DNA from: an uncultured Hyphomicrobiaceae bacterium
GTDB taxonomy: Bacteria; Pseudomonadota; Alphaproteobacteria; Rhizobiales; CALHAX01
Length of the DNA: 64,000 bases
Assembly: GCA_937931785.1 (NCBI GenBank)
Contig: CALHAX010000069.1
Location: 53,837 to 117,836, forward strand
Reading direction: 5' to 3'
Shown: piece after piece, positions 8,822 through 33,116 of the stretch
Layout of the letters: every line of letters begins with the position of its first letter
Position numbering within the stretch: position 1 is the first letter of the stretch
Notes under the pieces: generated by a model
Databases searched by the model: none
Seen by the model: the letters and a program-made list of their open reading frames with translations, nothing else
Told to the model about the DNA's origin: nothing
Made by a program: the position numbers and the translations under genes

Positions 8822-9715
8822 TTAAATCACTATTTTCTCCATTCCAATTGCAGAATACACGTCAGCGATAGACCAACCAGCTTCCCGCAAATGGCGCAAA
8901 CTCGTATCACGCAGGCTTTTCGACAGTTTTCGCCCTGCACTATCCGTGACCAGATCGTGGTGATGGTAAACAGGAGATGAATATCCCAGGACCTGCTGCA
9001 ATAGAACATGCAGGCTTGTGGCTGCCTCCAAATCCCTTCCTCGCGTCACGTGAGTTATGCCTTGCAGTGCGTCATCAACCACCACAGAGAGATGATAGCT
9101 CGTTGGCGTGTCTTTCCGCACAATGACGGTGTCACCCCATGCGCTGGCGTTGACCTCTCGTTCCGTGAGTTTTCCGGCTTCGTCGAACGTTGCAACGATC
9201 AAGGCCGTTCGATCTCCAACCTGGTCAATCGCCCGGTTCATGTCGAGACGCAGCGCCGTGCCAGACCCGGGCTCCCCGTTCGCGACACTGTCATCTATTG
9301 TGTCGCGTGCGGCGATATGGTTCCGACCGGGATATAAAGGGGCTCCGTCCGGATCCATTGGCCAATCGATGTGATCTGCGACGATTGCTGCGATCTGTTT
9401 ACGTGTGGCGCTGCAGGAATAAAGCAAACCAGCGGACTGCAGGCGCGCCGTTGCGGCGCGGTAGTCATCGAAATGCTCCGACTGACGGCGCACTGGTTCC
9501 GGCCATGACAGGCCGAGCCATGCGAGATCTTCGTAAATGCCGTCAACATAGCGTTCGCGCGTACGCCCCGTATCAATGTCCTCGATCCGCAGCAGAACCT
9601 CGCCACCGACCCGCGCGGCAAGCTGCCAGGTTTTCAACGCCGAGAAGGCGTGCCCAAGATGAAGCTCGCCGTTGGGGCTGGGGGCGAAGCGGAAACGTGG
9701 TGGGTTGCTGGTCAT
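8822..9715 (-). CDS. gluQ: tRNA glutamyl-Q(34) synthetase
   Basis: RFAPSPNGELHLGHAFSAL (HIGH-type), RIEDID and GRKLSKS (KMSKS-type) motifs, with a truncated GluRS-like length. Start moved to the ATG at 9715 (MTSNPPRFRFAPSPNG). Confidence 0.9.
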   Translation of the reverse strand: MTSNPPRFRFAPSPNGELHLGHAFSALKTWQLAARVGGEVLLRIEDIDTGRTRERYVDGIYEDLAWLGLSWPEPVRRQSEHFDDYRAATARLQSAGLLYSCSATRKQIAAIVADHIDWPMDPDGAPLYPGRNHIAARDTIDDSVANGEPGSGTALRLDMNRAIDQVGDRTALIVATFDEAGKLTEREVNASAWGDTVIVRKDTPTSYHLSVVVDDALQGITHVTRGRDLEAATSLHVLLQQVLGYSSPVYHHHDLVTDSAGRKLSKSLRDTSLRHLREAGWSIADVYSAIGMEKIVI

Positions 9716-9767
9716 GCGTGTTGAATAGCGCTTGGCGGGGACTGCTGTCATCTGGCACGTTGGTGCG

Positions 9768-10424
9768 ATGAAAGCACAGCACACCATCATCACGACGGAT
9801 GCGGATGTCACACGTGGCGTCCGCGCCCTGCGAAAACGATGCGCATTCATGAAGGCGGCGCACGACCTCACCGGGCCGCCACCCTTGCGGCGCGCCGAAG
9901 GTGGGATGCCTGGGCTTCTGCGTATCGTGATCGGGCAACAGGTTTCCGTGGCCTCGGCCACTGCGATTTGGGGTCGCTTTCAGAACGTGGTGAAACCTCT
10001 GGAAGCGGACAGTATACTACGCCGTCGTGAAACGACATTCCGCAAGGCGGGATTGTCGGGACCAAAAATCAGAACCGTGCGTGCCGTCGCGCAAGCTGTT
10101 ACCAACGGGGAACTGGATTTCGACGCCTTCGAGCAGATGGACGCCGATGCCGTGCATGATGCGCTTGTCGCTGTTCATGGCATCGGGCCGTGGACCGCCG
10201 ACGTCTACACGATGTTCTGCCTTGGACATGCAGACGGCTGGGCCTCCGGCGATCTTGCACTACAAATCGCTGCGGAAAAACTGATGGAACTGGAAGCACG
10301 ACCGTCCGTTTCTGAACTCACTGAGATTGCCGAGCGCTGGCGACCGTGGCGCAGCGTAGCGGCGCGGCTGCTCTGGGCGTACTACGCACACCTGCGCAAT
10401 GTGAAAGATGCGGTGCCGGTGTGA
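9768..10424 (+). CDS. DNA-3-methyladenine glycosylase 2 family protein (HhH-GPD)
   Basis: LLRIVIGQQVSVASA ... VHGIGPWTADVYTMFCLGHADGWASGDLAL, the HhH-GPD signature. Start at MKAQHTII. Confidence 0.8.
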   Translation: MKAQHTIITTDADVTRGVRALRKRCAFMKAAHDLTGPPPLRRAEGGMPGLLRIVIGQQVSVASATAIWGRFQNVVKPLEADSILRRRETTFRKAGLSGPKIRTVRAVAQAVTNGELDFDAFEQMDADAVHDALVAVHGIGPWTADVYTMFCLGHADGWASGDLALQIAAEKLMELEARPSVSELTEIAERWRPWRSVAARLLWAYYAHLRNVKDAVPV

Positions 10425-17556: not shown

Positions 17557-17641
17557 GCCCCTGTGGCGGAATTGGTAGACGCGCGGGATTCAAAATCCCG
17601 TTCCTTCGGGAGTGTCGGTTCGATTCCGACCGGGGGCACCA
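17557..17641 (+). tRNA. tRNA-Leu (anticodon CAA)
   Basis: Acceptor stem GCCCCTG/CGGGGGC with a terminal ACCA. Anticodon stem CGGGA/TCCCG with loop TTCAAAA (CAA). A long variable arm (class II) and a T-arm GGTTCGATTCC are present. Confidence 0.9.
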
Positions 17642-21179: not shown

Positions 21180-21791
21180 CTAGATTTTCGAACCGAGAAC
21201 CAGTGTCCAGAATGTTTTGAATTCGGTCTTGGGATCGTGAACCAACGCGATACCCATTTCTTCAGCATCAGCGAGAAGCAAATTCTTGTTGTGTCCCGGA
21301 CTTTCCTGCCAACCCTTGAAAACCTCTTCGATCGTGATCTGGCCCGTGCCGACATTCTCGGCGGTCAAGCGTGCCGGGTAACCCGTGCGGCCGACACGCT
21401 TCCACGGGTTCGATCCGTCAGAACCATGATGCGAGATGCGATCCCATTTGGCCAAATCTCTCGAATGGGCCTTTGCGGCAAGTGTCAGCTTTGAGTTCAG
21501 ACGCAGCGGTTTGAGACCCTTTTTGGCGCGATAACTGTTGATCAACTTGCGCGCACGTTCGACGTCGAGTTGCGTGCCTGCATAATCGCGATGGTCAAAT
21601 GCGCCTTTCGGAACGCGTTCCCAGGTGCCTTTCGGAGCAGAGTCGATTCCGTCGACCGCGTCTGTATCAATGGATGCGGTGGAATTTGCGTAACCCAGCG
21701 ACGGCAGGCCTCCGCCCGTGCTGCAGGCAGACAAACCAATCACAAGCCCGACCGCAAGGCCGCCACGAACACCATTCCAGACGCGCGTCAT
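21180..21791 (-). CDS. CAP (SCP/PR1-like) domain-containing lipoprotein
   Basis: Lipobox LSAC after the signal peptide (start at MTRVWNG). The CAP domain shows HSRDLAKWDRISHHGSDGS ... GWQESPGHNKNLL. Confidence 0.8.
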   Translation of the reverse strand: MTRVWNGVRGGLAVGLVIGLSACSTGGGLPSLGYANSTASIDTDAVDGIDSAPKGTWERVPKGAFDHRDYAGTQLDVERARKLINSYRAKKGLKPLRLNSKLTLAAKAHSRDLAKWDRISHHGSDGSNPWKRVGRTGYPARLTAENVGTGQITIEEVFKGWQESPGHNKNLLLADAEEMGIALVHDPKTEFKTFWTLVLGSKI

Positions 21792-22241
21792 CAACAAACT
21801 CCAATACATGCAGCCATTCATTGCCACGGCCCACTTTTCTCATATTCACGTTAAGGGATGGTTTCATCGCGTTCATAATAGGCTGCAACGCGTTTGAAAG
21901 AGCCTCATCAGCGCTATTCAAGACCCGACATTCCGCCTCCCTACAAGTCAATATTCATAGAAAAAACATGTCGTTAATGCGGCGCTTCAAGTTTCCGTCC
22001 AGCTGCGACTGCCATCATGATTCACGTCCATCGAGATTGCAGCCATCCCAGCTCGGAACTCCGCTGTATTGCTCTCACACTAGGTGGACGCCTAGTGCGT
22101 TGTTGTGATGTTTCGGCGTTAAACTTACTCAGTTCAGGGACTATTGTGAATTGCCGTCGAGAGCATGAAACGTTTGTTCATGCGCCTATCGGGAGAATAG
22201 GCACGCGACAGCACACCGTTTGTTTGGAGGCGTACCCAAAA

Positions 22242-22508
22242 ATGTCACGAGTCTTGGGGGATCATGACGGTGAGGCACCGTTGGATGTACCGAGCATTAT
22301 GAAAATGCTCATGGTGGTTTATAACAATGTCCGCGACGATCAGGTGATGGACGAGGTGGCTGAAGCCGTAGCTGACGCGATCTGCATGCTTGGAGACATG
22401 CGGACGCTCGCTCAGCAGATCGCCACAGAAAATGCTCAGTCTGATCCAGAAATCATGGCCGATTTTGCGGCGCTCAAGGTACCATCTGACACGTACAAGC
22501 TCTGTTGA
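22242..22508 (+). CDS. small acidic hypothetical protein (88 aa)
   Basis: MSRVLGDHDGEAPLDVPSIMKMLMVVYNNVRDDQVMDEVAEAVADAICMLGDMRTLAQQIATENAQSDPEIMADFAALKVPSDTYKLC. GGAGG lies about 11 nt upstream of the ATG at 22242. The upstream part of track ORF 22017..22508 looks non-coding. Confidence 0.4.
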   Translation: MSRVLGDHDGEAPLDVPSIMKMLMVVYNNVRDDQVMDEVAEAVADAICMLGDMRTLAQQIATENAQSDPEIMADFAALKVPSDTYKLC

Positions 22509-22777
22509 ACGCCGTACACCAGACCATGCCAACCTCGGGGATCCGCCTGCAGATTGACTCTGCTTGCCTGCTACGGCGGCACCCCACTCGTTTTCTCGCA
22601 ACACCCTGATTAAGGAATGCGTGGCCGCAGGGGATAGGTGCCCTCAATTGTCGACCGAGGCTTGGCGTGCGCCTTGAGATCCATCACACTATCCGTCAAT
22701 GGCTGACTGATTCGTTCAGCTGAAGAAGATCAATCCTGTCCTTGCGTCTTGACCTTCGCCTGACGGAGTTTCGAGCG

Positions 22778-23881
22778 ATGGGCAGCGACGCCCCGGACTT
22801 GCAAGCACACGATCTGTTTCTTCTGGCGACTCATTTCGCCGGACCAGATGGTTGTACGCTTACGACACTTGACAAGATGATAGTGCGGCTCACTGGTATC
22901 ACGCGAACCGTGTCGCAAAATGGCGGTCGGCTAACACGTCGAGATGCTCTTGCCGAATGGCAGCTCGCATCACTCTCCGAAGAGCTGCTTTCCACGCATG
23001 ACAGCATCACCAGTGCGGCCACTTCGGAACCCTCGCTACACGTCACGTCGCGTGGACTCCTAAAACTCAGTGAGCAGTTCGGTGACATTTTCCTGCAACG
23101 CTCCTGGTCGAACTTTGGCGATCGCTATCTGGTCGCGCGCACGCTTGGAATGCCGCCATCGGCCGGGCCACAACGGATGAAGCGCCTGGATACTGCGGAA
23201 GGTTTGCGACTCGCGGTCGTGCGACGGGCATGGGGCCTTCGCATCCCGGAAAGCGCCACCCTCGGCCAGGTCCGTAATGCGCTCGCCGCGCGCGCGCTTG
23301 GCGACGCGTTTGGTAAGCCGGTCGAACGACAAATTGGTCTTGACCATCGCATGTCCGGCAAGGCCGCCCGTACAATTGCCGCTCAACTTCTTGAGAAGAA
23401 ACGTCGCATTTCAACGGACTCGCAACTCATCATTGCACTTGCGACGCAACACCTTGGCACCACGTCGGGCGATGCCAAAAGCCTGCGCCAGGCCCTCGTG
23501 CGCAAGCACTTCGGTCTCAACAAAAAACAATCCAGAGTCGATCCTGCCACACTTGACGAAACGGAAGCTCCGTCCGGGCAGGCCATTGATACAAACGCAT
23601 TCCTCAGAGCTGTCAGAAGTTCGGCAAAACTGAATGCCAACGGGTGGTCAGGAAATCGCAAGGCGTATATTTCGCATGTCTGGCGAACGATTTGCGATTC
23701 GCATCCGGACTGGCGGCTGAGTGCCGACATGTTCAAATCGATGCTGATGGATGCACACCGGTTGGGGGAAGTTGTGCTCATCAATGCCGACCTGAGAGAC
23801 AAAAAAAACATGCGCGACGTTCAGGACTCAGCCATCCAATACAAGAATATGGAATGGCACTACGTGCAGATTGCCGACTAA
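22778..23881 (+). CDS. hypothetical protein (367 aa), no recognisable motif; first large gene of the candidate island
   Basis: Long ORF, with the ATG at 22778 preferred over the TTG at 22742. Mostly helical, with a compact C-terminal module GNRKAYISHVWRTI...FKSMLMDAHRLGEVVLINADLRDKKNMRDVQDSAIQYKNMEWHYVQI. It ends 62 nt before the next gene on the same strand. Confidence 0.65.
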   Translation: MGSDAPDLQAHDLFLLATHFAGPDGCTLTTLDKMIVRLTGITRTVSQNGGRLTRRDALAEWQLASLSEELLSTHDSITSAATSEPSLHVTSRGLLKLSEQFGDIFLQRSWSNFGDRYLVARTLGMPPSAGPQRMKRLDTAEGLRLAVVRRAWGLRIPESATLGQVRNALAARALGDAFGKPVERQIGLDHRMSGKAARTIAAQLLEKKRRISTDSQLIIALATQHLGTTSGDAKSLRQALVRKHFGLNKKQSRVDPATLDETEAPSGQAIDTNAFLRAVRSSAKLNANGWSGNRKAYISHVWRTICDSHPDWRLSADMFKSMLMDAHRLGEVVLINADLRDKKNMRDVQDSAIQYKNMEWHYVQIAD

Positions 23882-23943
23882 CGAACACTGCGGCTGCAAT
23901 TGTGGCGCACCTGGAATGAAACGCGAGAACAGATTGAGGGGCA

Positions 23944-26900
23944 ATGCCGCTTCAGGCTGACCAAAACGGACTGCCGGTGTCACTGGATGCCGGGCGTGTC
24001 ACCGCCGTGCTCGAGCAATCGATCACGTGGGAAGATGACGTCTGGAAATCTGATCCGTTCGATGTCGACCAGGTTCACCGTGTCGCGCGGCAGAAGTTCG
24101 CAACCCTGCTCGGGGAAGTTGCGGGCGGGCGACAGGTTTCTGCGCGCATTCTCTTGTTTCATGGACAGTCCGGAGCCGGCAAGACGCACTTGATTCGTGC
24201 ATTGCGTTCCTCGACCCATCGCACGGGTGTCGGCTATTTCGGATATGCACAACTGACGCCCGATGTTTCGAACTATGCGGACTACTATCTGCGGCGGTTG
24301 ATCAACTCGCTTGAGAAACCCTACGATCCTTGCGAACCTGAACAAAGTGGCTTGCATCGTCTTTCCCATATGCTGGTTGCAGACGATGTTCTGGTTGATC
24401 AGGCTGCGCTTGAAAGCCTGCGCGAAGATGAGCTTGGAAGCGCGGCACTGGCGCGTCTCGTCATGGAGATTGCTGATCATGTCGTCGCCGCACCGCAGTT
24501 CATGGATTCGGATCTCGACATCAACATCGTCCGGGCACTGCTCTACCTGCAGCGCTCAGACCCGCGTGTTGACCAACGCGTCCGACAATATTTCTACGGA
24601 AGGCAACTGAACGACCTCAGCCTTGAAACGGTTGCAGCTCTTGACCCGAATGAGGGTGAAGATCGCGCCTTCGAGATTATTGAGTCGCTTGGCAAGCTGA
24701 TGCACGCTGCGGGACATGCCTCGCTCGTGTTCTGTATCGACCAGGTTGAGGATCTACGGTTTTATGACGATGCGGAAGATCGCTTCCAGAAAGCGATCCG
24801 TGATCTGATACAGATCGCAAACCGTGTGCCGTCGTCTATCGTCGTGATCTCCATTCTTGGCGACTTCTACGATGGTGTACGCAGCTACCTGCCACAGTCG
24901 TTCATTGACCGGATCGAAAAGGCTGGACCGGCGCTTTTGCGTGACGCACGCCACTCTGACGAAGCTCGGATGATCATCGGCAAGCGTCTGCAACATGCCG
25001 CAGGACTTGAAGATGACAACCCTGATGCGCTTGCTGACAAGGTTTTTGGCGCACCATTTTTCAATGAAATTTCTGGTTTATCGACCCGCAAGGTGCTTGA
25101 AGCGGCGCAGCAACGATGGTGTGAGATACAAGGCAATGCGCCACGTCTGGCCGGAGAATATTCATTCGGTGCAAAAGCTGAAGCGGATGCGGCAGAAGCT
25201 CTTCGCACATCAAGTGCACAGTCCGTCAACGCTACAGATGATACGAATGTCGTTTCGCTGCCTCGAGCAAACGATGTGCGCTCCAGCGTCGATACAGATC
25301 TTGATCCACATGCGCCGAGTGGTGATCTTGGCGACCTGTGGGATCGCCTGTCCCTCAACTATCATGCTGAAATTCCAGACGAAGAAGACGACCTGACCAA
25401 CGTTCTACTGTCTGCATTCAAGCTTGCGGAAGACGAGGCCGGCGGTGTGATTGATGTCAACGTGCAGAACCTCGGTGATCTTGAAGGCGTTTCGGCCATT
25501 GATCTTTCGGTTACGCATGAGGGTGGCCAGACCGTTCAAAATCGCATTTTCCTCTGTAACAAGGGCAGCCAGGGCGGCGCTCTGAAACGCCAGATCGAGC
25601 GTGTACTGCAACTTTCAGAAGGACACGCCCCTATTATCGTGCGCACCAGTGATTTTCCTCCAAACGGGAAGAACGCCACATCGCAACTGGTCCGCCGCTA
25701 TCAGATGACGGGTGGGCGCAAGATCGTTGTGCCGTCTTATGAGTGGGACCGGATGATGACGCTGATCGCGTTTCATTCCCAGCAGCAACGTCACCCTGAA
25801 TTCTCTTCCTGGTTGCGGGCAACGGGCATGCTCGCCGATCTCCCGTCCATCAAACAGCTGCTCAGTCTTGACCTGACGGAACGAAAGCCGACGCCTGATA
25901 CTGCTGTCGATGCGCCAGCACAGGACGTTACGGCAGAACCAACAGGACCACAGATCGCTGGCGAGGTTCTCGTGCCCGTTGATTGGGCTGGAGATTATGT
26001 CGAAGACGAACACTACGCGAGAGTTCCGGTTGATGCGGATGGCCAACCCATCCCTGCAGACATGCTGCCGATCGGGGAGCAGGTTGAAGATATACCGTTT
26101 GATGACACGGCGCCCGATTGGGAGACGACCGAGGACGAGGCTCCACCCAGTCTTCCAGTCAACCCCCATGATATCGACCCTGATGCACTTCCGGATCCCT
26201 ACATTGATGATGAAGAACGGTTTCAGATCGGGTGTCAACTCGACAATGCGGCCACGCCGATCGCGCTATCAAAGAGCATTTTCCGTCGCCATGCCGCAAT
26301 GCTGGGCGGGTCCGGATCAGGTAAAACGACGCTCGCAATCTCGGTCATCGAGCAATTGTTGCTTCGTGGTGTCCCCGCCATCCTGATCGACCGGAAAGGC
26401 GACCTTTGCAGCTATGCAAACCCTGACGTCTGGCGCCCTGTGGAGGGCGAGTCTGCAGAGCGACGCGGACTGCGAGAGGAACTTGGCTCGTCAATCGATG
26501 TCGCCGTCTATACGCCGGGCCGCACGTCCGGCCGACCGATTGGAATTACACTGCTGCCGACGGGCATTGCAGAACTGCCAGAGCATGAGCAGCAACAGCT
26601 TGCGAACGTTTCCGCAGCTGCACTCGGCGATATGCTCCACCTCAAGAAGTCAGCGACCCATCAACGCCAGGGTGGAGTTCTTGCCGTTGCGCTGAAGCTG
26701 CTCGGGTCTCAAAGCCTGAGCGCTGTGACGCTGGCCGACCTGATTTACATGCTGGAGAATGATGATGCCGAGCTGATCGAGCTCACGCAACGCATGGATC
26801 CCAGCGGAAAATTGCGTCGTGATCTGATCGGGCAACTGGACTCGTTGCGCCATCGAAACTGGGCGTTGTTCGAGGGCGGTGGCGAGCAATTGCGTATGGA

Positions 26901-27498
26901 GTCCCTGCTCGGGCTTGGCAAATATGCGCGACCGGGTCGTACACGACTCTCCGTGGTCTATACGGGCTTCCTCGGGGATAATGAAAATATCCTCTTCTGG
27001 GTGTCACAGTTCCTGACCGAAGCTTTGCGCTTCAGTCAACGCAATCCGAATGAAGAACTGCAAGCCGTCATCATGTTCGACGAAGCGGATCTTTATATTC
27101 CCGCGAATGCAAAACCGGCAACGTCGGAACCGTTGCAAAGCTTGCTGAAGCGCGCTCGTTCTGCCGGGATTGGCATGTTGCTCGCCACGCAAAGTCCGGG
27201 CGATCTGGACTATAAATCGCGTGACCAGATCACTTCCTGGTTTATTGGTCGAGTGCGGGAAGATACTGCCTTGCGGAAACTGAAAGCGGCGTTCGGCACG
27301 GAAAGCGGACTTGATCCCGCACGCGTCCTGCCGAACCAGACCGTTGGCGAATTCCATCTGATCCAGGAAGCTGTTGTGCATCCGATCAAGGCCAAGCGCT
27401 CGCTGATCAATGCCGAGCAGGTGCCGTTTGACAAGATTGAGCAACTGGCGCGGGAAACGCGTGGTCAGGAAGCCAAGCAGCTCAAGCTGGAACTCTGA
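23944..27498 (+). CDS. 1184-aa dual P-loop NTPase (N-terminal ORC/STAND-like ATPase module + C-terminal HerA/FtsK/DUF87-like ATPase module)
   Basis: Walker A1 GQSGAGKTH (nt 24163-24189) with Walker B-like LVFCIDQVEDL (nt 24724-24756). An acidic Pro-rich linker spans about nt 25876-26223. Walker A2 GGSGSGKTT (26305-26331) is followed by ILIDRKGD, then Walker B2 VIMFDEADL (27067-27093) and LLATQSPGDLDYK. Confidence 0.85.
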   Translation: MPLQADQNGLPVSLDAGRVTAVLEQSITWEDDVWKSDPFDVDQVHRVARQKFATLLGEVAGGRQVSARILLFHGQSGAGKTHLIRALRSSTHRTGVGYFGYAQLTPDVSNYADYYLRRLINSLEKPYDPCEPEQSGLHRLSHMLVADDVLVDQAALESLREDELGSAALARLVMEIADHVVAAPQFMDSDLDINIVRALLYLQRSDPRVDQRVRQYFYGRQLNDLSLETVAALDPNEGEDRAFEIIESLGKLMHAAGHASLVFCIDQVEDLRFYDDAEDRFQKAIRDLIQIANRVPSSIVVISILGDFYDGVRSYLPQSFIDRIEKAGPALLRDARHSDEARMIIGKRLQHAAGLEDDNPDALADKVFGAPFFNEISGLSTRKVLEAAQQRWCEIQGNAPRLAGEYSFGAKAEADAAEALRTSSAQSVNATDDTNVVSLPRANDVRSSVDTDLDPHAPSGDLGDLWDRLSLNYHAEIPDEEDDLTNVLLSAFKLAEDEAGGVIDVNVQNLGDLEGVSAIDLSVTHEGGQTVQNRIFLCNKGSQGGALKRQIERVLQLSEGHAPIIVRTSDFPPNGKNATSQLVRRYQMTGGRKIVVPSYEWDRMMTLIAFHSQQQRHPEFSSWLRATGMLADLPSIKQLLSLDLTERKPTPDTAVDAPAQDVTAEPTGPQIAGEVLVPVDWAGDYVEDEHYARVPVDADGQPIPADMLPIGEQVEDIPFDDTAPDWETTEDEAPPSLPVNPHDIDPDALPDPYIDDEERFQIGCQLDNAATPIALSKSIFRRHAAMLGGSGSGKTTLAISVIEQLLLRGVPAILIDRKGDLCSYANPDVWRPVEGESAERRGLREELGSSIDVAVYTPGRTSGRPIGITLLPTGIAELPEHEQQQLANVSAAALGDMLHLKKSATHQRQGGVLAVALKLLGSQSLSAVTLADLIYMLENDDAELIELTQRMDPSGKLRRDLIGQLDSLRHRNWALFEGGGEQLRMESLLGLGKYARPGRTRLSVVYTGFLGDNENILFWVSQFLTEALRFSQRNPNEELQAVIMFDEADLYIPANAKPATSEPLQSLLKRARSAGIGMLLATQSPGDLDYKSRDQITSWFIGRVREDTALRKLKAAFGTESGLDPARVLPNQTVGEFHLIQEAVVHPIKAKRSLINAEQVPFDKIEQLARETRGQEAKQLKLEL

Positions 27499-27556
27499 CT
27501 CAATACGACGTTATCGTCGTGTTCAGCGCCATGACTGCATTACAGACGAGAATCGC

Positions 27557-28696
27557 CTACTTCACAAAGTGACGGCCAGGGCGCGGCGGAGGTGGTGTGC
27601 CGACGATGAGCGTCGGATCGGGCGCACGCACATAGACGTCGTCGTCGTGTCGTGGTGGAGGTGGTGGCGTGTCATTTTCAGAAGAGGGCTGCGCCTGCTC
27701 CATGTACGGCGACACCCCGGACTGTATTGGATCGATGGCAGGTATCGCAAGGTCCAACGGGGTGTCGAGATCCACAAGATCCTGTTGTGGCTCGACTGGC
27801 TGCGGGGTTTCAATGAGTGCGGCTTCTTGCGCAGCGGCCTCTGCAGTTTGCCGCTGAACTTCTGCCGCCTGAATGCGTGTCAGCATTTCCGCCACAACAT
27901 TCACAATGCTCAGACCTGCATCACCCGGATATTTTGCGATATATGTCCGCATGCTCGGATCGAAGTCCGCAGCACGCTGCAAATACGCACGGCGTGGAAC
28001 AGACGTTTCAAAGCATCGGTTCTCCGGATCAGACACCAAATGCTGGTGCCAGTGATTTTCCGCTTGAATCCGCCCGTCCTTGAGATTGATCAAGGTACCG
28101 AGGAGTTCAGCAAAACCATGCGCTTCGCTTTCGTTCCTGAAGCGCTTCAGAATATCGAGTCCGCGCACAGAGAGATAGTCCGGTTTCACCGGCGGCAGGA
28201 AATAGTCCGCTTCACGCAGCCATGTTTCGGTCAGTACGGAAAGCCCGGGTGGGCAATCGATGAGGATGACGTCGAAGTAGCGTTTGGCATCGGCGAGAAA
28301 GTTACGAACAAGCGTGCGTAATTCTGCATGTTTGTGTTCACCGGAAATCATCCGCTCGAACAAAGACAGCTGCATGTGGCTCGGCATCAGATAGATAGAG
28401 CGCGCCTCTTCGACGTCGGACACACCGGTTGCGACGTGCGGTTTCCAGTCCACTGGCTCGTTATTCAGGATGGCGCGGGACAGGTAGTCGACCAGAGTCA
28501 GTTTCTGGCGCTCCATCTGTTCCCAGCGGCCCATCTCCATCAGCATGATGCTCATGCTGGTCTGGCTGTCGGAGTCGATGACGAGCACATTACGCCCGTG
28601 GTGTGCGGACAATGTTTCGGCCATAGCCATGACGATCGTCGATTTCCCGACTCCGCCCTTCGTGTTCATTACCGCAATCGAACGTCCCATACCCAC
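27557..28696 (-). CDS. ParA/MinD-family ATPase (orphan) with ~100-aa Pro/Asp/Glu-rich C-terminal tail
   Basis: Deviant Walker A NTKGGVGKST, then VLVIDSDSQ and VILIDCPPGLS motifs. The tail (nt 27560-27868) contains PPPPPR and PPPPRPGR. Convergent with the 1184-aa gene, with 58 nt between the stops. Confidence 0.85.
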   Translation of the reverse strand: MGMGRSIAVMNTKGGVGKSTIVMAMAETLSAHHGRNVLVIDSDSQTSMSIMLMEMGRWEQMERQKLTLVDYLSRAILNNEPVDWKPHVATGVSDVEEARSIYLMPSHMQLSLFERMISGEHKHAELRTLVRNFLADAKRYFDVILIDCPPGLSVLTETWLREADYFLPPVKPDYLSVRGLDILKRFRNESEAHGFAELLGTLINLKDGRIQAENHWHQHLVSDPENRCFETSVPRRAYLQRAADFDPSMRTYIAKYPGDAGLSIVNVVAEMLTRIQAAEVQRQTAEAAAQEAALIETPQPVEPQQDLVDLDTPLDLAIPAIDPIQSGVSPYMEQAQPSSENDTPPPPPRHDDDVYVRAPDPTLIVGTPPPPRPGRHFVK

Positions 28697-29168
28697 TGCT
28701 ACCCCTCTACGGACTGATCCCAGTCAGCCGACAGTACACCGCCAGCGATGAAAGCGCCGATCATCAGAACATCCTTAACACCTAGCATGAATGGTTTTTC
28801 TATGTTCTTGCAGAATCAGCGCGCGCTCTACGAAATTTCGCTGCGTTCGCTGCGATTATCCACGTGATGTGCACATGTTTCCCGCAAGGCGTGCAAATCT
28901 CCTGGCGATATGATATCTATACTGCGCGGTAGTAGTACAGGGGTAGTAAGGGTCATGACCAGATCATTGGCCACAGCGTTGGTCCTTTCATTCGGAGCAC
29001 CGTTGCTTGGAGCTGGATTTTACGTCTTGTTGACAATCGTCAAGTAGGAACGGCCAGCATTATTTGTCGAAAACAGGGAACCGCTTTGGAGCGACGTGCT
29101 TCATTGTGTCTGTACCTACGAGCACGTTGTGCTGGACAATACCGCGTAAATTTACCTAGCGTTCCATC

Positions 29169-30437
29169 ATGATCGCACCTGAGCTGAATGACTGCTTCCT
29201 TCATGATAAAGACAGGCTTGCCCACGTCGAAGCGGTAAAGCTTCTGGTTGAGCGCACCCGGACCCATGGCCGGACCGAGAACATTCCGGTTTCAAGCGCG
29301 TCCGGACGATACATCGTCGATGAAATGACCGCGCCATCCCCTGTTCCAGGGCATCGAAATGCGGCGGTGGACGGCTACGCCTTCGCAACTACAGACTATG
29401 ATGCCAGCGACGGAACCACGTTCGATGTGGTTGCGCGTGTGGCCGCCGGCCATCCATTGCATCAGACACCGCCACACGGTTCATGCGTACGTATCTTCAC
29501 TGGTGCTCCGGTTCCAGATGCCTTTGATACCGTTGTCATGCAGGAAGACGTCACACTCACCCCGGATGGCAAAACGATGATGGCCCCCTCCGGCCTGAAA
29601 GCTGGCATCAACATTCGTGCTGCCGGGGAAGATCTGGAGATGGGAGCATCGATTGCGACCCCTGGTCAAAAACTGCGACCACAAGACCTGGCCGCACTGA
29701 CATCCGCCGGCTACGAGACGATTTCTTGTTATGAAACCCCGGTGGTCGGGCTGTTCTCCAGTGGTGATGAAGTCGTTCGACCGGGCCGCCCCCTGGAACA
29801 CGGACAGGTTTACGACGCCAACGCGGCCATGCTGCCAGCGCTGATCGAAGCTACAGGTGCAACGTTTCAGGACCTCGGTATCCTTCCTGACGACCGCACG
29901 ACGGTACGTCAGAAACTTCTTGAGGCGGCCGAGACGTTCGATCTGGTGATCACATCAGGTGGTGCGAGCCTCGGTGAAGAAGACCATATCGTCTCGGTTC
30001 TGGACGAGATCGGCAAGCGGCATCTCTGGCAAATTGCAGTGAAGCCAGGCCGACCGATGATGTTCGGCCAACTCGGTCAAGCGGTGTTCATGGGGCTGCC
30101 TGGCAATCCCGTAGCGGTGTTCGTCTGTTTCCTCCTATATGGTCGCCCGCTGTTGACCCGATTGGGTGGCGGTACGTGGGTCGAACCCACACGCTTCAAG
30201 GTCACGGCTGACTTCTCAATCCCGAAGAAAAAGACTGACCGACGGGAGTTTCTGCGTGGCGCCCTGGTGTCCGGGCCGCATGGCCCCGTGGTTCGGAAGT
30301 TTCCCAAAGATGGTTCCGGCCTGATCACGTCGCTGCGTGAAGCCAATGGGTTTATCGAACTGGCGGAAGATGTGTCGTCCGTTTCCGAAGGCGATCTTGT
30401 CGACTTCCTGCCGTTTTCGGCGCTTGGAATTGCCTGA
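29169..30437 (+). CDS. moeA: molybdopterin molybdotransferase
   Basis: Full-length MoeA/gephyrin-E pattern: NAAVDGYAF, RIFTGAPVP, VITSGGASLGEEDH, KPGRPMMFG, GLPGNPVA. Confidence 0.9.
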   Translation: MIAPELNDCFLHDKDRLAHVEAVKLLVERTRTHGRTENIPVSSASGRYIVDEMTAPSPVPGHRNAAVDGYAFATTDYDASDGTTFDVVARVAAGHPLHQTPPHGSCVRIFTGAPVPDAFDTVVMQEDVTLTPDGKTMMAPSGLKAGINIRAAGEDLEMGASIATPGQKLRPQDLAALTSAGYETISCYETPVVGLFSSGDEVVRPGRPLEHGQVYDANAAMLPALIEATGATFQDLGILPDDRTTVRQKLLEAAETFDLVITSGGASLGEEDHIVSVLDEIGKRHLWQIAVKPGRPMMFGQLGQAVFMGLPGNPVAVFVCFLLYGRPLLTRLGGGTWVEPTRFKVTADFSIPKKKTDRREFLRGALVSGPHGPVVRKFPKDGSGLITSLREANGFIELAEDVSSVSEGDLVDFLPFSALGIA

Positions 30438-30578: not shown

Positions 30579-33116
30579 ATGTCGACGTCTATTCGATACA
30601 TCATACTGACTCTTGAGTGGCTTATCGGGATTCCCTACCGGGTCTTTCGGTTTGTCTCACAGGCGATCGTGTTCAACCCACGGCTCGGCCCCATACGGCA
30701 CATTGCAACGGCCGGTCTGCTGTATGTCACCATGGCCGTAATGCTTGTGTACGTGGTTGCCCCCTTGCGTGGCCTGTATGGAGAATTCTGGCAGGGATCA
30801 AAAATCCACTACGACAGCCAACGCTGGCTTGCTACGGCGATTTACGACCGGAAAGACCAGTTCGTTGGCACATTCGATGCGCGCCTCGACAGCAAACGGG
30901 ATGTGAACTACACAGGCGTCCCTATTGAGGTTGCCGGGACGAGCTATGTCGCCAATCCTGACCACAAGTCCATCCCCGTGCGCAAGACGCCTGAACAATT
31001 CTGGCGCTGCCTTGTGTACCATGAGGACCGCTACCTCGGCACACTGTGGAACCCTTATGGCATCGACCTCTGGGGTGTCCTGAAAATTCCGGTTTCCACA
31101 GTGCAGCGCTCTATCCGCGGTCGTGGTGTGCGGTTTGGTGTGGGTGGCTCAACGCTACCAATGCAGCTCGCACGTATTGTCTACAAGACGCCACCGCGCC
31201 GGGGTGAAAGCTCACTCGACAAGATTCGTCGAAAACTGAAAGAGTGGTGGCTTGCTCCGGTTATTTACCGCACCTTGACCAAGGACGGGAATACGGAGCC
31301 GTTCAAGCAGTGGACCGCAAACCACCTCTGGCTCGGACAACGTACAGGCGGACAGGATCTACACGGAATTGAGGTCACGGCGCGCGTCGTATTCGGCAAA
31401 GCAGCCGAAGATTTGAATGTGGCGGAACAGTTCGTGTTGGCGTCGGCAGTCAACAAACCCATTATCCTCCTTGATGGTAGCGATCGGCTTAATGCAGTGA
31501 GACTCGATCGTTGGCGTTACATTGTCGAGGTTCGGGCTCGCAAGTGTGCAACAGAGCTGATCTCAAACGAGGAATTAAAGAAGGAAATACTGTTTGAGTT
31601 GACCAACATCGCCGGTGGTCCGCCTGATCCCAAGATCGCACCCAAGATGGATGCTGCCGTTCAAGCCAGTGCACCGCGTTACGTACGTCAGGCACGCGCC
31701 AATCCTGCATTGCGCGCCAACGTGCTCATACCTGCGGCACGTTACGGTGTGCGCGAAGAGATGAAACAAGAGTTTGGCTTCGAGTGGCGGAATTACGTGC
31801 GCGGCGTGAAGCTGACACTGGATGTTGCGGATAACAGAGGGTTCCGCGAGCGCGTGAAAGATCGTCTAACCAAGGTCCAGAAAGAGCATCAGGCTCGGAT
31901 CAATTCGCAATACTCACTTGATTTGCGGGCTCTCTCGTCGCCGGATGCTGCAGTGCGTGCCGTACCAAATGTCGTGGTTGCTGCGGCCAATGCGAAGGGC
32001 GAGATTGTTCGGTATTTCGAGGCGAAGGATACGGCGTCATACTTTGGTTCCGCCTACGCTCGCGATAGTGAAACAGGACGCTATGAGCCGAAGCGTGAAA
32101 CGCGGGCTATAGCGTCCGTTGGCAAGATGATGGCGGCGATCGCGATTGCGAACCGCACGCAAGACAATCTGGCATCGCGGTATCTGGATTTACAGGCTCC
32201 GGCGAAGGGGCTTGAATCATGCCGACGTCACGGGATCCTTCGGCAATCGCGTCGTGCGGAGGTTGTGTTCGCGTGTTCCCTCAGTCACCCACTCGAGATC
32301 CGACTGGCGAAGCTCGGACAGCGGCGACTCGCGCAATTGATCAACAAGTTTCAGTTTAACATGCCGCCATCTGCTGAACCGTCCGGTGCCACTCCGCCTT
32401 CAACGGCGATTGTGCGCGGATTTGTGACCGGTAGTCCGCGCAAGGTCCATCACATGGCAGGGGTTATTCTGGCATCCCTGACAGGCAAAGGCGCGCGTCC
32501 ACTGCCGGAACCTACTCTGATCAAGCGATTGGATGAGGCGGACACAACGGTTGATGCTGCTTCTACGGATGATGACGCTGATCGATCCGTGGGCCCGGAT
32601 GCGATCATTCCGGACCGGGTGATCCGGCCAGAAGCACGGCGACGGGTGCGAGAATTTCTTTCCGCACCATTGTGCTACGAGTTCCGCAAGCAGAAAATCG
32701 GTACACTCAAAAGCTTGCAGAAATGGTGCGCCAAGCGAAAGCGGAACGTGAAACTGCATTTTGCCAAAACCGGCACACAAGTGACCGAAGATCCGGATGC
32801 CACTGTTGATGCCTGGGTCGCAGGCGGTATCCAGTTCGCGAATGGGCCTGCGTATTCCTATGTCGTTGTTGTCGGTACCGGAAACAACAACGAGCCGTGG
32901 GCGCGGAAACTTCACGCATCGCAGCTGGCCGCTCCGCTTTTGGAGGCCTTGCTGGAAGATCTTGAAGTTGACGCCGCGAAGCAACCCCGGATCGCGCAAC
33001 GCGCTGCATTGAAAGTGACTTCCGGTTCACGTGGCACAAGCCGCCCAGTAAAGCGGGTTCGCGCGAAGCCGATTCGGCGGACAAAGAGACCGGGCTTGGC
33101 CCGGTCGGGGGAATAG
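30579..33116 (+). CDS. transglycosylase (GT51) domain protein, divergent class A PBP-like
   Basis: GT51 motifs YHEDRYLG, GGSTLPMQLAR, RKLKEWWLAPVIY and VAEQFVLASAVNKP. The C-terminal half has SVGK (SxxK-like) and KTGT. N-terminal TM helices and a basic C-terminal tail are present. Confidence 0.75.
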   Translation: MSTSIRYIILTLEWLIGIPYRVFRFVSQAIVFNPRLGPIRHIATAGLLYVTMAVMLVYVVAPLRGLYGEFWQGSKIHYDSQRWLATAIYDRKDQFVGTFDARLDSKRDVNYTGVPIEVAGTSYVANPDHKSIPVRKTPEQFWRCLVYHEDRYLGTLWNPYGIDLWGVLKIPVSTVQRSIRGRGVRFGVGGSTLPMQLARIVYKTPPRRGESSLDKIRRKLKEWWLAPVIYRTLTKDGNTEPFKQWTANHLWLGQRTGGQDLHGIEVTARVVFGKAAEDLNVAEQFVLASAVNKPIILLDGSDRLNAVRLDRWRYIVEVRARKCATELISNEELKKEILFELTNIAGGPPDPKIAPKMDAAVQASAPRYVRQARANPALRANVLIPAARYGVREEMKQEFGFEWRNYVRGVKLTLDVADNRGFRERVKDRLTKVQKEHQARINSQYSLDLRALSSPDAAVRAVPNVVVAAANAKGEIVRYFEAKDTASYFGSAYARDSETGRYEPKRETRAIASVGKMMAAIAIANRTQDNLASRYLDLQAPAKGLESCRRHGILRQSRRAEVVFACSLSHPLEIRLAKLGQRRLAQLINKFQFNMPPSAEPSGATPPSTAIVRGFVTGSPRKVHHMAGVILASLTGKGARPLPEPTLIKRLDEADTTVDAASTDDDADRSVGPDAIIPDRVIRPEARRRVREFLSAPLCYEFRKQKIGTLKSLQKWCAKRKRNVKLHFAKTGTQVTEDPDATVDAWVAGGIQFANGPAYSYVVVVGTGNNNEPWARKLHASQLAAPLLEALLEDLEVDAAKQPRIAQRAALKVTSGSRGTSRPVKRVRAKPIRRTKRPGLARSGE

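Follow-up and report, generated by a model that had tools for sequence, protein, structure and literature searches.

The gene at positions 27557–28696 of a 64,000-nucleotide (nt) stretch of DNA from an uncultured Hyphomicrobiaceae bacterium (GenBank contig CALHAX010000069.1, positions 53,837–117,836; hereafter the window) encodes an orphan ATPase of the ParA/MinD type. Its superfamily is well known; the protein itself is a new member, confined to one lineage and uncharacterised, with a C-terminal architecture that is unusual but not unprecedented. We consider it fairly probable that this chromosomal, Hyphomicrobiaceae-restricted ATPase serves as a dimerising positioning switch, in which short motifs of the C-terminal tail tether a partner encoded elsewhere. 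The ATPase itself comprises the following features (lengths in amino acids, aa).

27557–28696, minus strand: coding sequence of the orphan ParA-like ATPase; 379 aa if GTG 28696 is the start, 377 aa if ATG 28690 is; stop codon at 27557–27559
27812–28690, minus strand: folded ATPase core, residues 1–293, with a Soj/ParA-like fold that closes with a long C-terminal helix (residues 256–293)
28640–28660, minus strand: deviant Walker A motif KGGVGKS, with signature lysine K11 and catalytic lysine K16, almost invariant in 120 family members
28562–28588, minus strand: Walker A' region VLVIDSDSQ, with D39 and D41 invariant in the 120 family members
28244–28273, minus strand: Walker B motif DVILIDCPPG, with D145 invariant in the 120 family members
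27962–27997, minus strand: segment PRRAYLQRAADF, whose Y236 aligns with R238 of Myxococcus xanthus ParA, a non-specific DNA-binding residue

The defining features of the ParA/MinD superfamily are all present in the protein, namely a signature-lysine Walker A motif, the Walker A' aspartates, the Walker B aspartate, and a Soj/MinD-like α/β fold. The initial annotation had recognised a ParA/MinD-type ATPase by the signature lysine of KGGVGKS, and the motifs, the Pfam match to AAA_31 (3.6e-31, 109 bits against a cut-off of 27), and the Soj-like fold confirm this assignment. Pfam also reports CbiA, and its matches to MipZ and ParA/NUBPL cover the N-terminus only. In the AlphaFold2 model, built on a 120-sequence family alignment, the predicted local distance difference test score (pLDDT) is mostly above 90 in residues 1–293 and 46–67 in residues 294–377. 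A Foldseek search with this model returns 305 PDB matches at E ≤ 1e-3, and the best 50 of these are all ParA, Soj, McdA, MinD, or BcsQ-type ATPases. Soj (PDB 1WCV) and M. xanthus ParA (PDB 8RAY) are the top matches by both fold and sequence, with Foldseek E-values of ~1e-16, template modelling (TM) scores of 0.80–0.87 on the target, and 23–26% identity. These two are followed by McdA and a mycobacterial ParA-like protein, with MinD and BcsQ at lower ranks. From the intact motifs, we infer that the protein dimerises in an ATP-dependent manner and hydrolyses ATP. The start codon is uncertain by two residues: the 377-aa form, which starts two codons inside the GTG, is identical to a database protein (P0001), and the 379-aa form is also on record.

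Substitution R238E of M. xanthus ParA abolishes non-specific DNA binding (PMC12462528). In the alignment, the equivalent residue is Tyr236 in the window protein and Ala in a short subgroup of the family. Therefore, nucleoid binding via the canonical route is not assured; the neighbouring R234 or R239 could compensate for Y236.

The core is followed by a tail that sets the protein apart from Soj and ParA.

27560–27811, minus strand: disordered tail, residues 294–377 (84 aa), with 24% Pro, 17% Asp+Glu, and 6% Lys+Arg
27731–27778, minus strand: tail motif 1, LVDLDTPLDLAIPAID, an acidic-hydrophobic motif of the type [ILV][DE]L..P[ILV] near the start of the tail, conserved in the closest relatives
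27560–27655, minus strand: tail motif 2, the conserved C-terminal peptide PRHDDDVYVRAPDPTLIVGTPPPPRPGRHFVK, whose last 25 aa are conserved among close relatives

Among the five closest relatives, identity is 77–89% in the core, 12–32% in the linker, and 62–80% in the last 25 residues. The C-terminal consensus of the window clade is [FY]VRAPDPTLI.G.PPPPRPGR[HY][FY].K. The tails of other clades carry P[HQ]LR[VI]A.P[VL]RP followed by (E)PPRP...K, or EHGLTLVEE.EAGE, or RPIELG...PRP.PKQG. Across the family, the extension past the core ranges from absent (proteins of ~290 aa) to ~316 aa, and from acidic to basic and Pro/Ala-rich. Hyphomicrobium sp. CS1BSMeth3 has the short form without a tail. Neither the AlphaFold2 model nor the composition reveals a C-terminal amphipathic helix of the MinD type. 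Judged by these alignments, the tail is clearly a fast-evolving linker of variable length that bears short conserved motifs. The description of the last ~100 aa as low-complexity thus stands for the Pro/Asp-rich, disordered character of the 84-aa tail and fails for the motifs, which are conserved.

The family is small. Core identity (~275 aa) within it is 50–89%, and the next-best reference-genome proteins are at most 33% identical among the matches listed. At least nine true family members were found in the reference-genome scan, which used generic ParA patterns, and 24 loci in the metagenome scan, which used family-specific patterns. Of 1.84 billion cluster representatives, 55 match at E ≤ 1e-30, surrounded by a thin halo of relatives at 34–41% identity, for which a name look-up returned generic labels alone. 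Names below the level of phylum or order are Hyphomicrobiaceae or Hyphomicrobium, plus one metagenome-assembled genome (MAG) labelled Devosia; the rest are vaguer (Pseudomonadota or Rhizobiales). The functional names are generic ParA or AAA labels only. No NCBIfam model matches at its cut-off, the plasmid collection yields no match better than 33% identity, and our literature search found no paper on a Hyphomicrobium ParA-like protein. By sequence and attached names, then, the family appears sharply bounded, without functional annotation, and restricted to Hyphomicrobiaceae.

Orphan ATPases of the ParA/MinD type are common (PMC10241942), and the ParA-like gene of the window is a true orphan. 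As the initial annotation had stated, neither a ParB gene nor a convincing parS lies nearby. No ParB-type domain occurs in the larger open reading frames (ORFs) scanned between 14.8 and 36.6 kilobases (kb) of the window, which include all but one of those of at least 180 aa and several without any Pfam match. The canonical parS pattern gives two sites at three mismatches against 2.0 expected, i.e., chance level, and no array of centromere-like repeats is found around the gene. The two intergenic regions that flank the gene are the following.

28697–29168, intergenic: between the divergent ParA-like gene and moeA, without a conserved small ORF or repeat array
27499–27556, intergenic: 58-nt gap between the convergent ParA-like gene and the gene of a dual NTPase, with ACGACG-TTAT-CGTCGT (6-bp hairpin) at 27505–27520

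In the upstream region, a 29-aa ORF at 28699–28788 was considered as a small partner and is conserved in none of 21 related loci. All-against-all clustering of flanking ORFs finds no neighbour common to all 27 loci, and the upstream genes across the family loci are unrelated (an AhpD-like protein, a beta-barrel-like protein, a secreted repeat protein). CtrA boxes, GANTC sites, and DnaA boxes were sought upstream of the ParA-like genes, with nothing consistent. A motif of ~20 nt (~AAyAATGGCCGATAAGTTCG) lies ~100 nt upstream of the ParA-like start in L003, L088, L089, L091, and L093 (related loci are denoted by L and a number); it is confined to one subclade, is not in the window, and may be the binding site of a regulator. 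In the convergent gap, the spacing and the hairpin between the stop codons are present as first described, but the hairpin is not significant: the 70-nt region around it folds no better than shuffled sequences (z −0.7 and −0.5). No T-run terminator is called in the gap, and an intrinsic terminator between the convergent genes was rejected.

By the established mechanism of its superfamily, the ParA-like protein would work as an ATP-dependent dimerisation switch and would position a cellular component. The peptide motifs of the tail would bind a partner or cargo whose gene lies elsewhere in the genome, and the linker would be a flexible tether. Such an arrangement resembles that of FtsZ, in which a globular NTPase is followed by a disordered, variable linker that ends in a short conserved C-terminal peptide. 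The likeness to FtsZ is one of architecture and is an analogy only, since fold and nucleotide are unrelated. In principle, the tail would also compare with the C-terminal targeting sequence of MinD. This membrane-targeting sequence lies beyond the ATPase core, and the function of MinD and FlhG depends on the C-terminal extension. These proteins belong to the same superfamily; however, the extension of the ParA-like protein is 84 aa long, Pro-rich, and non-helical, in contrast to the short amphipathic helix of MinD/FlhG. The family is a clear case of an ATPase in which a long disordered linker and its conserved terminal peptides belong to the same chain. These peptides would be a handle for partner pull-down. 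The host lineage grows in an unusual polar or budding manner, and few of its cell-biology factors have been studied.

Several points weigh against this proposal. The analysis turned up no partner, cargo, or matrix, so that the putative positioning function derives from family membership. The attachment modes of ParA and MinD are not apparent either: where chromosomal ParA has its canonical DNA-binding Arg, this family has Tyr or Ala, and the amphipathic C-terminal helix is absent. The motif type [ILV][DE]L..P[ILV] occurs in 27 of 85 tails, compared with 4.9 expected from shuffles, but such enrichment counts are inflated by the relatedness of the tail sequences. In addition, four divergent lineages, with core identities as low as 56%, retain the convergent adjacency of the ParA-like gene and the dual NTPase, and both families bear only Hyphomicrobiaceae-type names. 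A loose functional link between the two is accordingly conceivable, and we regard it as less likely.

None of the known relatives accounts for the protein. With Soj and M. xanthus ParA it has in common the fold, the signature-lysine Walker A motif, the Walker A' aspartates, and the Walker B motif, but it lacks a ParB gene or parS nearby, carries Tyr or Ala in place of Arg, and has an extra long C-terminal helix and a disordered tail. The partition models are far from reached (NF041546 ParA_partition, the best NCBIfam match, 64.3 against 180 bits; TIGR03453 RepA, 50.6 against 348; PRK13705 SopA, 15.2 against 725). McdA (PDB 6NON and 6NOP), a carboxysome-positioning ATPase that works with a disordered partner, has a similar small ParA-like fold. 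Its identity to the window protein is 18–20%, and in the latter the disordered segment is part of the ATPase chain; no carboxysome genes or adjacent McdB-like gene are found in the window neighbourhood or the related loci. The MinD model TIGR01968 scores 33 against 212.9 bits and the BcsQ model TIGR03371 47 against 157.85 bits, and the scanned ORFs include neither min nor cellulose synthase genes. MipZ is an alphaproteobacterial division-site ParA-like ATPase without an adjacent partner gene of its own. The MipZ profile PF09140 is matched at positions 3–87 of 262 (residues 7–93 of the 379-aa ORF), and MipZ structures in the PDB match the N-terminus only (E ~5e-4). PADLOC models of the defence ATPases PDC-M28B and mad8 match the N-terminal P-loop alone (residues 7–108, E 4e-8). 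An anti-phage defence ATPase was rejected on this partial match, the conserved chromosomal block in which the gene lies, and the flat guanine–cytosine (GC) content.

On the left side of the window, this block reads DsbB, VTT, tRNA-Leu, PBP5, DUF924, a flippase-like gene, CAP, an 88-aa ORF, a 367-aa protein, and the NTPase, and it is collinear with L115, L116, and L118 at 34–79% protein identity. Taken from DsbB past the NTPase to MoeA and Transgly, the block is collinear with relatives at 50–79% protein identity. GC content is flat across the region. What the initial annotation took for an island is conserved chromosome, and many genes of the block concern the cell envelope. The tRNA-Leu(CAA) gene at 17557–17641, the sole tRNA gene of the window, stands at the left edge of the block, immediately before the PBP5 gene, and neither an integrase nor a shift in composition is seen with it. 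On the other side of the ParA-like gene are two further genes.

29169–30437, plus strand: moeA, with the 845-aa protein among the most frequent neighbours of tail-bearing family members
30579–33116, plus strand: 845-aa transglycosylase-domain (Transgly) protein, the most frequent neighbour of tail-bearing ParA-like genes

The 845-aa protein has an N-terminal membrane segment and a glycosyltransferase-51 domain at residues 126–297, without a transpeptidase domain. About 550 aa have no domain assignment, the C-terminus is very basic, and the protein is conserved at 57–73% identity. The MoeA homologue scores 387 bits with the NCBIfam MoeA model (cut-off 440) and 244 bits with Glp, a gephyrin-like divisome protein (cut-off 475). 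The CAP protein (21180–21827) gives a sub-threshold match of 93 against 200 bits to DalA, a divisome-associated lipoprotein. These scores hint at a cell-envelope or division flavour of the block and are not assignments.

This setting raises the possibility that the ParA-like protein is a MinD/MipZ-like regulator of the envelope or division site, which positions or times peptidoglycan synthesis by the 845-aa protein and penicillin-binding proteins (PBPs) in the polar-growing or budding Hyphomicrobiaceae. The Transgly-only protein is divergent to the ParA-like gene, adjoining or one gene away, in eight lineages (the window, L002, L003, L088, L089, L093, L112/L113, and L115). PbpC lies upstream in L107 and L116, and the block holds PBP5, the flippase-like gene, and the CAP and MoeA genes with their sub-threshold matches. 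However, the proximity in eight lineages arises because the same block is syntenic, and L117 has the NTPase and Transgly genes side by side, without a ParA-like gene between them. This adjacency is not seen in L091/L092 or L094, nor at any of the 13 loci of a subgroup with 47–53% identity. Since, in addition, the protein has no membrane-targeting helix and its matches to the MinD and MipZ models fall far short of the threshold or cover the N-terminus only, we judge such a role unlikely.

The initial annotation had instead linked the ATPase to the convergent dual NTPase and proposed a common interaction or condensate-like mode for the acidic, Pro-rich tail and the NTPase linker. The NTPase belongs to a conserved four-gene block at 21180–27498.

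21180–21827, minus strand: CAP/SCP-domain protein
22242–22508, plus strand: 88-aa ORF
22778–23881, plus strand: 367-aa partner of the NTPase
23944–27498, plus strand: 1184-aa dual NTPase, AAA_16/BrxD-like in its N-terminal half and HerA/DUF87/mad8-like in its C-terminal half, a syntenic neighbour of the ParA-like gene

The gene order at related loci is as follows.

ParA-like gene and NTPase convergent and adjacent: the window, L107, L115, L116
ParA-like gene and NTPase 5 kb apart: L002
NTPase absent within the available 4–10 kb of downstream flank: L003, L088, L089, L091, L093, L094, L112/L113, L114
NTPase absent within the sequenced flanks (2–10 kb): all 13 loci of the 47–53% subgroup

In favour of a partnership are the adjacent and near loci, the Hyphomicrobiaceae names of both families, and the acidic, Pro-rich composition of both the tail and the linker in the window. 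Furthermore, MAG GCA_039816705 retains both genes even though they are unlinked, the ParA-like gene (79% identical) and the NTPase block lying on different contigs. Against it, the closest relatives (L112/L113, 89% core identity; L114, 79%) bear tails but no longer have the adjacency, which is also missing in L003, L088, and L093 and is kept in nearly tail-less relatives. In particular, the tightest adjacency is found with the 301-aa ParA proteins of L107 and L116, and the called genes of L116 are separated by 14 nt. At L117, L118, and the P0184 locus, the NTPase block has no ParA-like gene. L112/L113 keep Transgly and MoeA on one side of the ParA-like gene, which is convergent there with an unrelated 1179-aa protein (BLASTP E 0.56 to the NTPase); by the annotation's own reasoning, a ParA-like gene that stays beside moeA without the other genes speaks against the link.

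The resemblance in composition holds in the window and is not conserved across orthologue pairs. NTPase linkers are always acidic (in the window, residues 636–765, with 15% Pro and 25% Asp+Glu), whereas the tails of the paired ParA-like proteins are acidic in the window and L115, basic in L002, and nearly absent in L107 and L116. No tail motif recurs in 120 NTPase orthologues. As candidates for a motif common to tail and linker, DIPF is present in the window copy only and P[ILV][DE]L in 1 of the 120 orthologues, and both were rejected. Moreover, convergent genes are not co-transcribed, and the constant companions of the NTPase are other genes, namely the upstream protein of 345–453 aa (where the flank is sequenced) and the divergent CAP gene. 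The ParA–NTPase arrangement thus looks like inherited gene order within a conserved block and not like evidence of a two-gene system. We consider a partnership through the tail quite improbable; the pairing would reflect conserved gene order, and the common low-complexity composition is not conserved.

The NTPase and its companions have features of their own. The NTPase family is large: among the best 120 of 918 matches, full-length identity is mostly ~57%, and all names given at family level are Hyphomicrobiaceae. The CAP–partner–NTPase arrangement is seen in every examined NTPase locus with sequenced flank. Some of its domain matches are defence-like, yet the NTPase block has the look of a core system of the chromosome and not of a mobile defence island. 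The 367-aa partner has no match in Pfam, NCBIfam, or PADLOC and has 34 database relatives, with a conserved C-terminal motif, GW.GNRKAYISHVWR ... ANADLKD ... YKN..WH. Its AlphaFold2 model is mostly helical (pLDDT 81), and a structure search gives no PDB match with E below 0.1, the weak ones being winged-helix (MarR/PadR) and MukE/MukF folds. The unrelated protein of 1143–1179 aa that is convergent on the ParA-like gene in the closest relatives (6471–10010 of L112, 1820–5251 of L114) has weak DUF4407 and SMC coiled-coil matches, probable membrane segments, and no homologue in the window.

A separate partner would be unnecessary if the tail acted in cis. ParB activates ParA via a short N-terminal peptide bound in a cleft at the dimer edge (PMC12462528), which offers a precedent for a ParA that is activated by a peptide of its own (hydrophobic-Arg-[VA]-Ala-x-Pro ... 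PPRP ... Lys), in the manner of the N-terminal peptides of ParB, ParG, and MinE. A partner gene is found at none of the loci, and conserved motifs that contain Arg and Lys stand at the end of a flexible linker, which favours such a self-contained ATPase. However, the short subgroup (~290 aa) is tail-less yet equally conserved, the tail motifs differ between clades, and AlphaFold2 docks the tail nowhere with confidence (pLDDT 46–67). We therefore hold activation in cis to be very unlikely.

We give little credence to a more elaborate model, in which the ParA-like ATPase, the lineage-restricted HerA/FtsK-like NTPase, and its winged-helix-rich upstream partner would form one Hyphomicrobiaceae-specific machine that moves DNA or cargo through the hypha into the bud, with the tail motifs docking the switch onto the machine or a polar scaffold. 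If true, it would echo Hyphomonas neptunium, an analogous stalked budder in which a second step of chromosome segregation proceeds by an unknown mechanism and an FtsK-type translocase is suspected (PMC6650430).

A canonical DNA-partition ParA of a chromosome, plasmid, or integrated element is largely refuted: the nearest solved structures are chromosomal Soj/ParA and the best NCBIfam match is ParA_partition, but that model is far from its cut-off, ParB and parS are missing, the DNA-binding Arg is not conserved, and, in agreement with the first view of the locus as neither plasmid nor canonical ParABS, the best plasmid match is 33% identical and the block is housekeeping and syntenic.

Elsewhere in the window, the ORF at 8822–9961 is also 379 aa long, by coincidence the same length as the ParA-like ORF, and encodes GluQRS, the tRNA glutamyl-Q(34) synthetase. 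The GluQRS match starts at residue ~90, indicating either that the true start lies downstream or that the protein has an N-terminal extension.

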